Source: an uncultured Candidatus Saccharibacteria bacterium
GTDB lineage: Bacteria; Patescibacteriota; JAQUNI01
Length of the DNA stretch: 64,000 nucleotides
Direction: 5' to 3'
Assembly (NCBI GenBank): GCA_964555185.1
Contig: CAZKRD010000003.1
Span: 19,943-83,942 of the forward strand
This document shows positions 7,974 through 20,479 of this stretch, piece by piece (within the stretch, counting starts at the first letter, position 1; the number at the start of each line of letters is the position of its first letter). Position numbers and translations under genes: made by a program. The notes under the pieces were generated by a model that was not told the DNA's origin, ran no database searches, and was given only the letters and a program-made list of their open reading frames with translations.

Positions 7974-9011
7974 CTACAAATCTTCCTTCATCAACTTAAA
8001 ATTCACCTGGTAGGTGTAAAGAGTAATGTTTTTCAATTCTTTGAGAGCATATTTTAATTTCTTGTCTACTTCCAAAACCACAATTACTCCTTTAACTATT
8101 TTGTCTTTGGCAAGGTTTTCTCGAACCCAAGCAATATAACGCAGTATCTGACCGACAACTGCATCGGAACTTCTGCCCTTTTTTAGCTCGATAACTAAAT
8201 ACTCCTTGCCATCTTTAAATCGAGCTAAAATATCTATTGGACCAACTGGTGTAGCATATTGTTGGCTTACCAAGTCCCCTTCCTCTTCGATCAACTCGTA
8301 TTTCTTACCGAAAGTTGTTTTACTCCAGTTAGCTATTAGAAAATCCTCAAGATGGCTCTCCATGCCAAAATTGACCAAATCTGCAACTCCATGTTCCTCG
8401 GCTTCCTTCTTTATTGCCTCTTCTTCGCTTTGAGAAACACCAAATGGGCTACTTCCGGAAATATTTCCTAAAACACCATCCAGTTGCCACAGGGTTATAT
8501 CGTGCTTATCTGCTAACTCCAACAACACTTGGTTGACCTTCAGATACTTATCAGCAAAGGTATCTCTTGGCAAAAACCTGGGAAATAGATTAAGTTTCTT
8601 TAAAGCCGACTCACTTTTGGTATTCCACACACCGTATTTGGCAGGATAAACGACTAGGAGAATAGGGGTAACAACCGCTCTACCCAATCCCTTGATATTA
8701 TAGCTGCTTCTTTTACTAAACGCCTTCTGTAATCTCTCTTTTATGGGGATATTCTCATCAAGAAGAAGATGCAGAAACTTCTTTAGTGCGTCCATATCAG
8801 AGGTAACTAGATTTCCTTGCCTATGTATTCCCTCCCAGTGAAGGTTGTTTTTTAGGAGTAAAAACGATTTGAAATCTTCTTTTATAAGACCATCGAGGTT
8901 AGCCGGATTAAACAATTGCCCATATTCTCCAACCACCTTTTTCTCTGACGTTACCCACCATGGGTCTTTTGCCCTGTTTTTAACAACTTTCTGAATGATT
9001 TCTTGTTCCAT
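7974..9011 (-). CDS. NucS/DUF91-like PD-(D/E)xK nuclease domain protein
   Basis: C-terminal PIDILARFKDGKEYLVIELKKGRSSDAVVGQILRYIAWV matches the conserved DUF91/NucS nuclease core. Confidence 0.5.
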   Translation of the reverse strand: MEQEIIQKVVKNRAKDPWWVTSEKKVVGEYGQLFNPANLDGLIKEDFKSFLLLKNNLHWEGIHRQGNLVTSDMDALKKFLHLLLDENIPIKERLQKAFSKRSSYNIKGLGRAVVTPILLVVYPAKYGVWNTKSESALKKLNLFPRFLPRDTFADKYLKVNQVLLELADKHDITLWQLDGVLGNISGSSPFGVSQSEEEAIKKEAEEHGVADLVNFGMESHLEDFLIANWSKTTFGKKYELIEEEGDLVSQQYATPVGPIDILARFKDGKEYLVIELKKGRSSDAVVGQILRYIAWVRENLAKDKIVKGVIVVLEVDKKLKYALKELKNITLYTYQVNFKLMKEDL

Positions 9012-9410
9012 AGGTCTATTTTAACAAAATTATAATAATTCTTTACACTGGCAACAAAAATATGATGAATACTAAAGACACAAATCCTCCAAAGCATAAA
9101 CCACGGAAGTATTTAGAAATACTGCGACAACTTGGGAAAAATGGGGTCGGGGTCGACTCTGATTTTTCTTTAGCTTAAACTCAAAAGTTTTACACTTAAA
9201 GTCCGATGTTGCTCCGCATCGTGGATAATGTTAGAACTATTATCCAGCGACAAAATGAGTATATTTACATCCCAGACTTATCTTCACAAGGTCAGATTTA
9301 GTTTATTGATTATTACTCCACCCCACTACTCACTATATATTTTGAATAAAAGGTTCCTGACACCTTTTTTCCCAGGCAAAAATTTCCTCCCCCCAACCCC
9401 CTCCATTTTT

Positions 9411-9448
9411 GCCTGCCTGCTGTTTTGGTAAGGCGAAATTAACAGGCC
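9411..9448. repeat. left 38-bp terminal inverted repeat of RM cassette
   Basis: gcctgcctgctgttttggtaaggcgaaattaacaggcc is the reverse complement of 13099..13136 with one mismatch. Confidence 0.85.
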
Positions 9449-9451
9449 AAA

Positions 9452-10912
9452 TCAATTTTTGAGTATAGTCAGGTCAATATCAATCTGCTTTCCAGCGACC
9501 AAATCGCCAGCAATAGATTCCAGTTTTTGCTTGATTCGTTTGGTTTTCTCGTGAGTCAAAACAACTTCCCGATAAACTTTTGCGATTTGGCCTCTCAGAC
9601 CAGCTGGAAAATTAGGGAATGGTGTATTCAAAAATTGATTTGTCTTGATTTCTTTCATCTTTGACCCTATCGCAAGCCCAGCACAATAAAGTCGCATATA
9701 GTTGCAGTTCATAAAACAAGACATAAATAGTAAATCAGTATCAGGATAACCGGAGACCCTATAAATCCCTTGATTGTGTTGGGCTTTACCATACAGAGCT
9801 ATGTCAAAGAACATTGCGACACCAACATATTCTCCTCGGCCGCCACGCGAAGTTCGATTGACGAGCAACATCGCATTTTTGTTTAGATTGTTCTTTTCGC
9901 AAGTGATACGCTCCTCGTTTCTAAACGCGCCGAAGTCAGTAATATTTGCCGGCGTAACCCAAAAATATTTTAGTTCCTGACTTGTCCCGACCATGCGTTT
10001 TTTAGGCGTGTTCCCACTCTTGATATTTTTTTGATCAATTAGAAAAAATCCTGCTTTGTAATTCCGAACTAAAAAATCAATCTGCTAAAATTCTTTGCTA
10101 TATGTCCTAGTATCTAAACGAATCTCTTTCCCGATTTTGTTGGTAGTTGGATATTCGTACTGAAATTTCTTTGATTTTTGATTTGAGAGTTCCTTTTCAA
10201 TCAACTCATTGATAGTGGCGGATTTGTCTCTGACAAACCTTTCTTGTTTTATGACCGCCGTAACAAGTTTTTCAATATATTTAATTACTTCCTCCTGATT
10301 TTTTTGGTTCGGAAATGGAATTTTACAATCCAAAAAAAGTGTTTTTGCGTGCTTGATCGTGGTGCCTCGTGAGACAAGGAGTAAGAGTTGAATTTTAAAA
10401 AAAACACTTTTCAGCAATCCAAACACATATAGTTTTTGTTTTGTAAGGGGCAACCTGTATATGCCGCCTGAAATCATATGTTGTGGATAATCTTTATCCA
10501 AAATGATAACCTCGCCGACATTCGAATCTTTTGAAATCAAAATATCACCTTTTTTTAATTCATAATTTTTGAAACTCGAGGGTAGAATAGGAACCACACT
10601 TTCGGGCGAGAATGCAGGCAAAAAATAATCCGGCTGTAACCCCTTTGTTCGAATAAACTGAAATGGAGAATTCGATATATAACTCTGCGATCCGACCTCA
10701 ACTCCTTTATCAGTGGATTTGAGCGGACGATCAAGGAGATCGCGCAAATCCACACTATTTCTATTCTCAATTCTTAATCCTTTATATTGAGAAGCGGAAA
10801 GAGAATAGTGCCTGGAAGCTACTTCATTGGAGCGTATTTCAGTTGGTACTTTAATATAGTTCATTTGTCCAAAAAAACATCTTGTAGAGTTTTCTCTTGA
10901 CCTAAACACCAA
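9452..10912 (-). pseudogene. HsdS-like two-TRD specificity subunit interrupted by a single in-frame TAG (10085..10087)
   Basis: ORFs 10085..10912 (TRD1: GDILISKDSNVGEV...IPFPNQKNQEEVIKYIEKL) and 9452..9994 (TRD2: NTPFPNFPAGLRGQIAKVYRE) are in the same frame; the 31 intervening codons are open and separated only by the TAG. Confidence 0.6.
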
Positions 10913-13008
10913 TCCTTGAATTCCTTGACTGTTTGGGTAAATTCTTCATCAAGCAAGGGTTTACCCTCCTCATCTATTTTAACCTCAAATTTATTACTAT
11001 CAATTTTATAGATCGGAACAAAATGTTTAACACGCTTGATGGTTTTTACTTTGTATCCGACTCGCTGAATATCTTTCACAAAAATGTTGTAGCCATTCTC
11101 ATTGAGTTTCTTCAATTCTTTCTCAGATGGCTTGTAGGCAACGATGACCGTTGTATTGACTCCCGTATCGGCAAATACATTTGCAGGAAGATCGAATAAA
11201 GCAACGACTCTCATTTTTGACATAATCCATTTCCTTGCCTTCTCCCATCTATCAATTGATGCTATCGAATTTGAAAGTATAATACCGACTCGGCCGTTTT
11301 CTTTCAAGATACGGTAAGCATTTTCAAAAAACACAAGGCCGAGATCAATCCAATTTCCATTTCTTCCAACGTGCCAAAGCTCATAGAGTTCAATAATCTC
11401 TTTATCTTTTTGAGTTTTTGGTTCAAATTTCCTATCTTCTCCAAACGGCGGATTAGTTAGGACGATATCAAATTTTTTGAGTTCAGTATAGTCGTCCCAC
11501 GCATCCCAATTTCCGGCCTTGTGTTTTGCTGGAATGAGATTTACTAATTTCCCGTCCTTGTCGAATTTGTGAGTGATGGAACCATAGCCCGGCTGGAATT
11601 CTATCTTGGCGTTTCCGTCTCCGTTCAGAAGCATATTTAACTGTGCTAACATGACCATTTGCACGTCGTTATCAATTCCATAAATGTTTTTATCGTCCAT
11701 TTTTCTGTCGGACTTGACATAAGAAATTGACAAGAAATCTCCGCTGCCAACAGTCGGATCGGCTATCGTGTCCAACGCTTTCGGGTGAACTATATCAACA
11801 AGAAAATCAATCAATGGAATTGGTGTCAAAAATTGTCCCTTCTCGGATTTGGTAAAAGCGTTCGCAAAACGATAGAAAATGAGTTGATATAGATCAGTTG
11901 TACTCGATCTGGTAAAGCTGTAATCCTGCAAGTTATGGACTATTGAACCCACGACGGCAACATGTCCCTCGTTTTTCCAGTCAATAATTGAATTGCTCAA
12001 AATCACTTTATATGTACTTACCGCTTGGGCGCACAAATCCCGCATGCGTTTAATAAATGTTTGTATACTTTGGTCGTTGAGCGTCTTGAAATCGCGTTCA
12101 TTTTGTTCGATATAAAATTTGAGACGATGAATATCCCCGTATTCATCGTCTTGAATATAGTATTTCAACAACTCGTTCTTTTTTTCGTCGAAAATTTTGA
12201 GCGCGATAAGTTGAACCAAAATTTCATATCCGCGCTGGTTCAACATGCTTACCTTGTCGAGCGTTCGCAAAATATCGGAAATCGCCTGATTGATTTGAGT
12301 ACTAAAGACTCCGGTGATAACATCAAGATCATTTACGGTTCGTGCAGACCTGTCAATTTCTATATCAATAATGCGCTTTTTGATTTGATCAAAGGACGGA
12401 ATTTTTCGGAATTCATCGGGTAGGTGGAGAGACAATTCTCTTGTTGAACTGTTTTCTCCTTTTAGGTTGTACGATTCATCAAGGCGAATAAACTTGCCAT
12501 GCTTTTTTTGGAATAAAAATAGCCGTTCGGTGTCATAGAGAACGCCAAGACAAAAGTCGCTCTCCGATTCTTTAATGGCTGGTTTAAGTTGTTGATTATA
12601 GACCGTTTCAATATCCTTGCCATCTTCTTTCTTGAATTCAATGACGGCAATGAGATGACTTCTCAACCAATCAAGGTCGGATTGATTCTTTTTTGTAATC
12701 CAATTTTTATATCTATCAAACCAATTCTTATCGTCGAAAATCGCGCCGTCAAATTTGATGGGTGCAGAATTCTTGTTGCCTTTCGGAAAATAAACCTCCG
12801 AGCCGATAAAATCTTTTTGATAAAGTCCTGAATATACCAATCCGTAGAAAAATTGCCATTTGTAATATTCTTCGTTGGGCGTATTTCTTGACCCCTTGAT
12901 TTTGACCTTCTTATTCAACTTAAGATTGACAGGAAGGAAGGCCATGAAGTCTTTTTTTGTCAAATAGAACTTATCAAATTTTTGTTTTGTTTCAAAAAAT
13001 GTCTTCAT
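10861..13008 (-). CDS. type IIB/IIG restriction-modification enzyme (PD-(D/E)xK endonuclease fused to N6-adenine methyltransferase), BcgI-A-like
   Basis: N-terminal FDGAIFDD...IAVIEFKKED (D...ExK); methylase motif I DPTVGSGDFL and motif IV NPPFG; 3' end overlaps the specificity gene. Confidence 0.8.
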   Translation of the reverse strand: MKTFFETKQKFDKFYLTKKDFMAFLPVNLKLNKKVKIKGSRNTPNEEYYKWQFFYGLVYSGLYQKDFIGSEVYFPKGNKNSAPIKFDGAIFDDKNWFDRYKNWITKKNQSDLDWLRSHLIAVIEFKKEDGKDIETVYNQQLKPAIKESESDFCLGVLYDTERLFLFQKKHGKFIRLDESYNLKGENSSTRELSLHLPDEFRKIPSFDQIKKRIIDIEIDRSARTVNDLDVITGVFSTQINQAISDILRTLDKVSMLNQRGYEILVQLIALKIFDEKKNELLKYYIQDDEYGDIHRLKFYIEQNERDFKTLNDQSIQTFIKRMRDLCAQAVSTYKVILSNSIIDWKNEGHVAVVGSIVHNLQDYSFTRSSTTDLYQLIFYRFANAFTKSEKGQFLTPIPLIDFLVDIVHPKALDTIADPTVGSGDFLSISYVKSDRKMDDKNIYGIDNDVQMVMLAQLNMLLNGDGNAKIEFQPGYGSITHKFDKDGKLVNLIPAKHKAGNWDAWDDYTELKKFDIVLTNPPFGEDRKFEPKTQKDKEIIELYELWHVGRNGNWIDLGLVFFENAYRILKENGRVGIILSNSIASIDRWEKARKWIMSKMRVVALFDLPANVFADTGVNTTVIVAYKPSEKELKKLNENGYNIFVKDIQRVGYKVKTIKRVKHFVPIYKIDSNKFEVKIDEEGKPLLDEEFTQTVKEFKDWCLGQEKTLQDVFLDK

Positions 13009-13098
13009 GAAATTTTTATTCCATCAGATTGCTTGATTATACATCATGGTTTCCTTACGTATTTAGTATAGCAAGAATATTAAAAAAAGAACAGAGTG

Positions 13099-13136
13099 GC
13101 CTGTTAATTTCGCCTTGCCAAAACAGCAGGCAGGCA
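13099..13136. repeat. right 38-bp terminal inverted repeat of RM cassette
   Basis: ggcctgttaatttcgccttgccaaaacagcaggcaggc. Confidence 0.85.
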
Positions 13137-13139
13137 GGT

Positions 13140-13366
13140 TGAGATGGCTCTTCTTTCTTTGGCTCTTGACTTAACGATTCAACTTCTTGGGTTTGTTCAG
13201 TGGCTGATTGTTCCTGTACATCTTCTTGTGGTTGTTCTGCTTCGGTTGCTCCTGTTTTCGTCTCCTCTATATTGGTTTCTTCTTCTCTGGGGATTTGAGT
13301 GGTTCCTGTACAACCAGATAAAATAAACAGGCTAACTGAAATAATAAATAATATTATTTTTTTCAT
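13140..13366 (-). pseudogene. truncated duplicate of the 5' end of lipoprotein gene 3434..4027
   Basis: First ~75 codons (MKKIILFIISVSLFILSGCTGTTQIPREEETNIEETKTG...) and the upstream catctttttgaattatt leader are ~90% identical to 3792..4035; reading then continues into the TIR. Confidence 0.55.
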
Positions 13367-18857: not shown

Positions 18858-18868
18858 TCTAAATTTAT

Positions 18869-20479
18869 ATGAAGAAAGTCGCTATTTACACAAGAGTTTC
18901 TAGCGAAGAGCAAGTAAATGGTTATAGCCTAGGAGATCAACAAGAGAAGTTGCAGGATTATTGTAAATCCAATGGTTTTCTATTAGAAAAAAGACATATA
19001 TACCGAGAGGAAGGAATTAGTGGCGCAAAAAAGGAAAGGCCTGTTTTAAGCCTGTTATTACAGGCAGCTCAAAATAAGGAGTTTGCCTTAGTTTTAGTTT
19101 ATAAATTAGATCGGTTTTCAAGGAGCCTAAAGAATCTCCTTGAGCTAGTTGCTGATTTAGAGAGAAATGGAATTGGTTTTAAGTCAATTACAGAGACATT
19201 TGATACTTCAACTCCGATGGGCAAGTATATGCTTCAGAATTTAGGGTCCATAGCTGAACTAGAGAGAGAGATGATCAGAGAAAGGACTCTAATGGGACAA
19301 ATCAAGTATCTTAAAGAGGGCAACTGGAAGGGGGGCATTACTCCCTATGGATACGATTACAATAAAGAGACTCACAAACTTGAAATTAATAAAGAAGAGG
19401 CTAAGATTGTTCGGAAAATGTATAAATGGGTTGCAGAAGAAGGTTCAACTTCACATTCAGTCCAAAAGCGACTTAATGATTTAGGGATTTCTACTAAGTA
19501 TGGTAACTTAGGTAAAAAGAAGCAGGTTAATGGTGCGTGCTTTTGGAAGAAAAGGACCGTTGGCAGGATTTTAACTAACGAGATTTATTCGGGTACATTT
19601 ACTTATCGTAAATATAAATATTTGGGGAGGGTTAGAGGAGAAGATAATTTACGTCCCGAGGACGAGTGGATTAAGATTAAAACTCCTAGAATAGTTAGTA
19701 AAAAGATTTTTGATTTGGTCCAGAATCAAATAAATAAAAATAAAAAACACTCACCGAGAAATAGTAAGTATAAATATCTTTTTGCCCACATGATTAAGTG
19801 TGGTTACTGTGAAGGTAGGTATGGGAGTATGTATAGTGCTGAACGCAAAAGAGGTGTAGTTGGACGGAAGAGATATTTTTGTCATAACACCAGAGCGGAT
19901 AATAAACAGGAGAAATGTAAAGCCAAAAGCGTGGCAGAAAAAAGAATTAGTGAGCCCATCTGGAACAAGATAGCAGAGGCGTTGAGTAATCCAGCCATAG
20001 CTTTTGAGCAATTGGAAAAGATACAGAAGAAAGAGAACAACATTGAGGAGGTTCAAGAGAAACAGAGAGAATCAGATAAGCTGATCCTTAAGAACAAAGA
20101 AAAATCCAGACGATTACTGGATTTGTATTTGGGAGGTGGGGTAGATAAGGAGACTTACGAAGAGAAAGTGGGGGAGATAAATAAAGAGGCCGATAGCTTC
20201 AGGCGGGAAAAAGTAAGGTATAATAACCTTTTTATTTCCAAAGAAGAGAAGAAGGCGAGAACACAATCAATTCAGGAGATGTATGGGCGGTTCAAGGACA
20301 ATCTTAAGAAAATCACCTATTCTCAAAAGAGAGAAGTGCTTAAAATGTTGATAGATAAGGTAATTATTAAAGGCGCAAAGATTGATATTTACTGTAATAT
20401 TCCCTATAAATACTCGTTTGAGGGACAGTCAACTCTCCTTCCGTGTCTTTGCCTTCGGGGTCGGGCAGAAATTCATTGA
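18869..20479 (+). CDS. large serine recombinase (integrase)
   Basis: N-terminal AIYTRVSSEEQ catalytic serine motif, recombinase domain, Cys-rich zinc ribbon (CGYCEG...C...C), coiled-coil C-terminus. The last ~15 codons read antisense through the LTD gene. Confidence 0.9.
   Translation: MKKVAIYTRVSSEEQVNGYSLGDQQEKLQDYCKSNGFLLEKRHIYREEGISGAKKERPVLSLLLQAAQNKEFALVLVYKLDRFSRSLKNLLELVADLERNGIGFKSITETFDTSTPMGKYMLQNLGSIAELEREMIRERTLMGQIKYLKEGNWKGGITPYGYDYNKETHKLEINKEEAKIVRKMYKWVAEEGSTSHSVQKRLNDLGISTKYGNLGKKKQVNGACFWKKRTVGRILTNEIYSGTFTYRKYKYLGRVRGEDNLRPEDEWIKIKTPRIVSKKIFDLVQNQINKNKKHSPRNSKYKYLFAHMIKCGYCEGRYGSMYSAERKRGVVGRKRYFCHNTRADNKQEKCKAKSVAEKRISEPIWNKIAEALSNPAIAFEQLEKIQKKENNIEEVQEKQRESDKLILKNKEKSRRLLDLYLGGGVDKETYEEKVGEINKEADSFRREKVRYNNLFISKEEKKARTQSIQEMYGRFKDNLKKITYSQKREVLKMLIDKVIIKGAKIDIYCNIPYKYSFEGQSTLLPCLCLRGRAEIH

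Follow-up and report, generated by a model that had tools for sequence, protein, structure and literature searches.

An R-M module with an interrupted specificity gene

The window, that is, the whole 64-kb stretch of DNA analyzed here, carries rpoB, polA, uvrB, and ruvA and is therefore chromosomal. On its minus strand lies a two-gene restriction-modification (R-M) module. The RM gene (10861 to 13008) is intact and encodes a 715-aa protein with a predicted N-terminal PD-(D/E)xK nuclease domain, a helical linker, and a gamma-class N6-adenine methyltransferase (NPPF at residues 519-522). The S gene, for the specificity subunit, follows it. Direct translation gives a single frame over positions 10912 to 9452, whose sole internal stop is a TAG at 10087-10085 and whose terminal stop is a TGA at 9454-9452. 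The preliminary description had rightly reported a specificity gene split by a single in-frame amber codon at this site; the strand is here made explicit as minus.

The S gene almost certainly starts at ATG 10864, so that the first reading frame (10085 to 10864, minus strand) yields a product of 259 aa, which matches the Pfam model Methylase_S (9e-09). This choice follows from the overlap of the ATG with the RM stop codon, from the start used in the public gene call (P0013), and from the match to the N-termini of the homologues. The TGA of RM and the ATG of S overlap as ATGA at 10861-10864, an arrangement pointing to translational coupling of the two genes; the identical 4-nt overlap is present in a homologous module (L005). 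The TTG at 10912, which serves as start in a mechanically compiled ORF list and gives 275 aa, is probably not the S start, and the 275-aa ORF described at first is to be replaced by one of 259 aa. Read through the TAG, the frame encodes 470 aa rather than the roughly 486 aa initially proposed. Exactly this length is found in three of the ten closest protein homologues (P0002, P0004, and P0010), all ten being 464-478 aa long.

Domain limits were taken from a structural model of P0002, a protein co-linear with the 470-aa frame (pLDDT 90.4), in which the first target-recognition domain (TRD1) spans residues 1-185, the central helix CR1 190-229, TRD2 begins at about 241, and CR2 spans 421-456. This model matches two-TRD S subunits in the PDB, and S.BsaXI is among the top matches of both the S profile and the model. 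According to these limits, the first S frame encodes TRD1 (about 1-185), the CR1 helix, and about 30 residues leading into TRD2. As the stop falls 30 residues past the end of CR1, both TRD1 and CR1 are complete in the 259-aa product. The amber codon (TAG, or CTA on the plus strand) is codon 260 and lies inside a helix (257-267) at the start of TRD2. Beyond it the frame continues (9452 to 10084, minus strand) for 210 sense codons followed by the TGA, encoding the rest of TRD2 and CR2 and containing a 180-aa ORF that begins at ATG 9994.

Between the TAG and this ATG we counted 30 sense codons, where 31 had been given, and a reading of the frame found no in-frame ATG, GTG, or TTG in that interval. 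The 180-aa ORF lacks about the first 50 residues of TRD2, including the family-invariant Y269, G284, T286, P287, and R290. The earlier assignment of one TRD to each ORF thus holds for the first, which has all of TRD1 and CR1, and fails for the second. That a read-through product would contain two TRDs is borne out by both the homologue alignment and the P0002 model. The post-stop ORF is matched at 60-179 by an NCBIfam MAD5-type S profile, and a PDB profile match to 1yf2 spans residues 275-464 of the read-through protein. A search for a promoter-like site or a terminator serving the second ORF returned nothing above shuffled expectation.

The same allele is present elsewhere in public data. The exact 259-aa protein (P0013) and the following 180-aa ORF are called on four public contigs, corresponding to a 706,972-bp ENA scaffold and to the Logan assemblies of SRR8482191, SRR8482198, and SRR8482192. 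These four assemblies (L001-L004) are 100% identical to the window across 3.0-3.8 kb, TAG included, and one of the Logan contigs is present in five samples. At the assembly level, the truncated allele is fixed in every sample carrying the contig. Conversely, eight sense-codon versions of the 470-aa protein gave no exact match among about 15 billion public proteins. Protein searches found no intact near-identical allele, the nearest relative besides the truncated protein itself being 72% identical.

The module is bracketed exactly by a 40-nt inverted repeat, 39 of the 40 positions being complementary, of which two copies occur in the window and none is expected by chance. The left arm (9410 to 9449, plus strand) lies immediately 3' of the S stop. 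The right arm (13097 to 13136, minus strand) is on the 5' side of RM and falls within the 3'-terminal part of an ORF of 103 aa (13055-13366, minus strand), whose product looks secreted. The peptide ACLLFW is encoded there and also, in the opposite direction, by the left arm. The repeat has no visible target-site duplication. Repeats of this kind are absent from the homologous loci, and an exact-pattern scan of the JGI metagenomes gave no match. The arms may reflect the way in which the cassette came to be inserted, or the way in which it can flip. At the border between a region of low GC content (33-39%, 1-20 kb), which holds the R-M module, and the remainder of the window (41-49%) sits a large serine recombinase of 538 aa (Resolvase, Recombinase, and Zn ribbon domains; 18863-20479, plus strand). 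This suggests that the module is part of an integrated mobile island. Just downstream of the module and outside the inverted repeat, a 345-aa protein (7974-9011, minus strand) has a NucS_C / PD-(D/E)xK C-terminal domain and matches the PADLOC candidate defence family PDC-S02 (E = 3.8e-55), placing a second defence-type gene next to the module.

Type of the system and relatives of its S subunit

The RM protein matches the Pfam models N6_Mtase (2e-30) and Eco57I (2e-18) and has about 240 extra N-terminal residues beside its methylase part. Within them, D87, E124, and K126 show no variation across 37 homologues and are placed on adjacent strands (83-91 and 119-125) of a confidently modeled N-terminal alpha/beta domain. 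The best PDB match of the AF2 model (pLDDT 81.8) is RM.BsaXI (8w2p_A, E = 2e-17, 692 columns), which ranks above Type I HsdM proteins, whose matches span the methylase part only. Motif, topology, and whole-chain match together form the pattern of a PD-(D/E)xK nuclease domain, which we predict for this N-terminus.

No HsdR-like gene lies beside the module. None accompanies two homologous modules either (L005 and L008), in which the same pair of 715-aa and ~465-aa proteins is found in unrelated neighborhoods. Among the scanned long ORFs of the 64-kb window there is no HsdR, the only ResIII/helicase protein being UvrB. Against the hsdM model TIGR00497, RM scores 40.8 bits, for a cut-off of 242.75. 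The fusion of a nuclease to an N6-adenine methyltransferase, the position of RM.BsaXI as the closest structure, and the lack of HsdR in the window lead us to conclude that the module is, in its predicted architecture, Type IIB-like (BcgI/BsaXI-like) with two genes, RM and S. A classical Type I system composed of HsdR, HsdM, and HsdS was rejected: no HsdR is found nearby, and a 715-aa nuclease-bearing protein stands in the place of a nuclease-free HsdM of about 500 aa. The HsdS-like, Type I context in which the gene had first been placed is therefore abandoned. The module is found in many phyla, including CPR lineages, and in archaea. This widespread pair of 715 and about 470 aa, usually annotated as "type I M/S", is thereby seen to have a Type IIB-like architecture, a recognition that is mildly new.

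The read-through sequence matches 840 proteins and has end-to-end alignments to over 800 single-chain S proteins (best E = 1.8e-226). Of the best 120 among these 840 matches, about 117 are single chains of 445-516 aa spanning both halves, and the query coverage of the best 120 is mostly about 90% or more (lowest 80%). At the genome level, 450-510 aa are encoded at 70 of the 75 species-representative loci in which the frame ends inside the locus. In an alignment of 102 sequences, the column of the stop is occupied in the 101 homologues mainly by lysine (74), glutamine (12), and arginine (10), with glutamine in the two closest. The homologue codons at this site are AAA, AAG, CAG, and CAA, among others. 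Most likely, a single substitution, CAG to TAG or AAG to TAG, made the stop. A CPR genome, from a member of Daviesbacteria at 70% identity, has one continuous S ORF with a sense codon at the site; the closest homologues show a leaning toward the CPR, which is no more than suggestive. Members of the family are single chains of the form TRD1-CR1-TRD2-CR2, and the window encodes only TRD1-CR1 as one chain. Because the relatives are single-chain proteins with a sense residue (K, Q, or R) at the stop column, we conclude that this gene is not naturally split.

Other interrupted or partial S sequences were encountered in the family. In a Phocaeicola sp. MAG (L025, about 72-1550), a lone in-frame TAG at about codon 311 is followed by an intact downstream frame. 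In Pasteurella langaaensis (L075, 5001-5805), S is cut after residue 268 and unrelated sequence follows near the contig end. A further candidate truncated allele (P0020/L089) was discarded, its gap being a run of N in a scaffold. The closest N-terminal relative (75% identity), from the Candidatus Uhrbacteria MAG PFWS01, is divided between the end of one contig (L017) and the start of another (L072). The first stops at residue ~258 and the second starts at ~289, on either side of the same 30-codon stretch that divides the two ORFs of the window. The shared position may be due to chance, or this may be a junction at which assemblies break because of strain variants or TRD swaps. For many homologues (L034, L039, L042, L043, L050, L055, L060, L063, L064, L069, L070, L073, L075, L080, L084, and L087), only residues ~2-270/324 (TRD1 and CR1) fall within the best-matching segment, though most of these ORFs are full length. 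This pattern of sequence matches suggests that TRD2 has been exchanged among family members at the central junction, where the stop of the window falls.

Neither RM nor the downstream half of S shows decay at the positions that the family conserves. The C-terminal half of S, downstream of the stop, keeps 17/17 invariant and 42/45 of the at least 90%-conserved positions, as do the intact homologues P0001 and P0002. RM differs at 4/308 highly conserved positions, within the range of 2-21 found in 11 intact homologues under the same test. There is thus no excess of changes at conserved positions in RM or in the C-terminal half. By these sequence comparisons, and at their resolution, either the mutation is young or parts of the module are still under selection.

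Readings of the interrupted S gene

The stop itself we regard as shown to be real. The explanation that we consider best, and to which we give about even credence, is that it arose by a nonsense mutation that became fixed only recently in the S gene of a BcgI/BsaXI-like module, which would be freshly silenced. In systems of this type, two RM fusions assemble on one S subunit, as (RM)2S. Each TRD of S recognizes one half of a bipartite site. Neither cutting nor methylation proceeds without S, in BcgI/BsaXI-type systems as in those of Type I. By analogy, the same dependence would apply here. With a stop at codon 260, translation would cover TRD1 and CR1 but go little further, S with both TRDs would no longer be made, and the original specificity would be lost. 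The net result would be an r- m- module, silenced and only just entering pseudogene decay. As the loss of S removes cutting and methylation together, it would be a safe route to losing an R-M system. We infer the loss of activity from the truncation, and the recency of the mutation from a RM gene and a downstream half without decay. The sporadic disruption of S in other members of the family (L025 and L075) supports inactivation. However, the undecayed RM gene and the 210 post-stop codons fit a very recent event and continued use equally well, and, with the allele fixed and no intact near-identical allele among about 15 billion proteins, there is no direct sign of a fresh loss. Also against inactivation, the truncation leaves a complete TRD1-CR1, a type of half-subunit that is active in the literature cases found (EcoR124I delta50, EcoDXXI deltaC, NgoAV, and BsaXI TRD1-CR1). 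The preliminary description, which had proposed nonsense inactivation of the system, was right that one S gene is broken by one amber codon and had overlooked the option of an active half-subunit.

This option is a serious one, which we hold tentatively. By analogy with the cases just cited, the 259-aa TRD1-CR1 protein would homodimerize via its central helix and recruit two RM proteins, and the module would recognize, methylate, and cut an interrupted palindrome with a TRD1 half-site on either side; the part of S beyond the stop would be dispensable and not yet decayed. In favor of this option, the product has a complete TRD1 and CR1, RM is undamaged throughout, and all samples with the contig carry the truncated allele. 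A precedent exists in the same architecture, since BsaXI TRD1-CR1 with RM cuts at AC N5 GT. Type I precedents are also available: EcoR124I delta50 and EcoDXXI deltaC recognize palindromes as homodimeric half-S subunits, and in NgoAV, whose HsdS is naturally truncated, methylation at GCA N8 TGC occurs in strains carrying a premature stop in HsdS. CR1 and CR2 have no sequence similarity in the S of the window. We considered this dissimilarity as an objection to a homodimeric half-S and dropped it because CR1 and CR2 of BsaXI are equally dissimilar and its half-S works. Three points speak against a half-subunit in use. A half-size S is not a regular form in the family, 70 of 75 loci being full length and the few short ones being cut at scattered positions. 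A sudden new specificity leaves self sites unmethylated. Finally, if the half-subunit were of long standing, the C-terminal half would be expected to show decay; in NgoAV, the downstream part is degenerate.

We consider it improbable that a complete S is still made, whether by amber read-through, by a suppressor tRNA from another part of the genome or from a TAG-recoded phage, or by the reassembly of separately translated halves. The perfect preservation of the 210 downstream codons would be explained in this way. Moreover, co-expressed N- and C-terminal fragments of EcoDXXI S regenerate wild-type activity, and in the Phocaeicola MAG, too, S has a lone in-frame TAG and stays open beyond it. 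However, TAG works as a stop for housekeeping genes in this DNA. It terminates 9 of the 43 ORFs of at least 150 codons in the window, and treating it as sense lengthens ORFs less than treating TGA or TAA so. For the TAG-ended genes of a T2SSE ATPase, RuvA, and a Mur ligase, the stop coincides or nearly coincides with the end of the Pfam model. The stop-codon census and these domain ends led us to reject a genome-wide reassignment of TAG. No suppressor tRNA with a CUA anticodon is encoded within the 64-kb window, where the sole tRNA is a tRNA-Glu, and the suppressible site envisaged at first finds no support. Separate translation of the second half is countered by the position of the first in-frame start after the stop (ATG 9994), which deletes the five invariant TRD2 residues, and by the absence of a promoter-like signal above chance; in BsaXI, TRD2-CR2 alone is not even expressible.

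A special form of this idea treats the amber codon as a conditional switch: the two-TRD S, and restriction with it, would appear only in the presence of a suppressor tRNA, for example from an infecting TAG-recoded phage. Such tRNAs are carried by TAG-recoded phages, which have hosts among the Bacteroidota. The module would then be silent until such a phage arrives. The hints are thin, consisting of the preserved downstream half and of the lone TAG with an intact frame in L025, and we find this switch hardly believable.

Phase variation, which had also been raised for this site, is suggested by nothing in S. The break is an in-frame substitution and does not fall in a repeat tract; the 40-nt inverted repeat is external to RM and S alike. 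Likewise, a tblastn search of the window for a shufflon or spare TRD cassettes found no other TRD copy.

A sequencing or assembly artefact hiding a sense codon is very unlikely. A difference of one base would suffice to create the stop. Nevertheless, three separately assembled runs and the scaffold reproduce the TAG, which makes a one-off assembly error unlikely; the four assemblies are identical across the site, one contig recurs in five samples, and none of the eight sense-codon 470-aa versions occurs in the 15-billion-protein collection. The possible sequencing error mentioned in the preliminary description has accordingly lost most of its weight.

Equally hard to credit is that the S function is naturally carried by two separate genes in this lineage: public annotation pipelines do call two ORFs, but the closest relatives, CPR included, have one continuous ORF with a sense codon, the second ORF has neither a conserved start of its own nor the conserved TRD2 residues, and the lengths of the homologues led us to reject a natural split. 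The check proposed earlier, namely whether homologous S subunits are naturally divided at this point, thus finds them uninterrupted in both protein and genome-locus comparisons. The two ORFs that annotation reports, a 259-aa "S subunit" and a hypothetical protein of 180 aa, are best treated as parts of a single interrupted gene.

Freshly silenced, the module would be an R-M system captured at the moment its specificity subunit is cut. There is nothing unusual in a defence module of this kind being turned off or given a new target by a premature stop in S, and neither a null nor an active half-S would change the current understanding of R-M evolution. Both nonsense-interrupted S genes and functional half-S subunits are already known, and a natural example in a Type IIB-like module is mildly new.

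Comparison with known systems

Among the NCBIfam/PADLOC HMMs, the best-scoring are those of MADS, with mad2 for RM (5.7e-32) and mad5 for an intact S homologue (1.5e-21). Membership in MADS was nevertheless rejected: the scores are 131.7 versus 720 bits for MAD2 and 55.9 versus 400 bits for MAD5, and the other mad genes are absent here and in the homologous loci.

Three further sets of systems resemble the module or its interrupted S gene. In EcoDXXI deltaC and EcoR124I delta50, the truncation falls after the central conserved region, as in the window. These are, however, laboratory mutants of Type IC systems with similar conserved helices, whereas CR1 and CR2 are dissimilar here. NgoAV, a Type IC system of Neisseria gonorrhoeae, offers a natural S broken after the first TRD and the central helix, and its first ORF alone gives the symmetric specificity GCA N8 TGC. 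It differs in being a true Type I system with HsdR, in which a frameshift in a phase-variable poly-G tract interrupts S and the sequence downstream has degenerated. In the window, the break is a point nonsense mutation outside any repeat tract, and the downstream part is pristine.

BsaXI, a Type IIB enzyme (PDB 8w0p/8w2p), shares with the module the organization in two genes, one for a fusion of nuclease and methyltransferase, the other for an S subunit with two TRDs. Identity is only 14-19%, and RM is 715 aa long here versus 916 aa in BsaXI. The label Type IIB describes the architecture of the module, as distinct from Type IIB cleavage, which occurs at fixed distances to either side of a bipartite site. 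The engineered TRD1-CR1 of BsaXI corresponds to the 259-aa product, with the difference that the truncation results here from a natural nonsense mutation and in BsaXI from an engineered deletion. If its half-subunit is active, the module would be a natural Type IIB counterpart both of NgoAV and of the engineered BsaXI TRD1-CR1.
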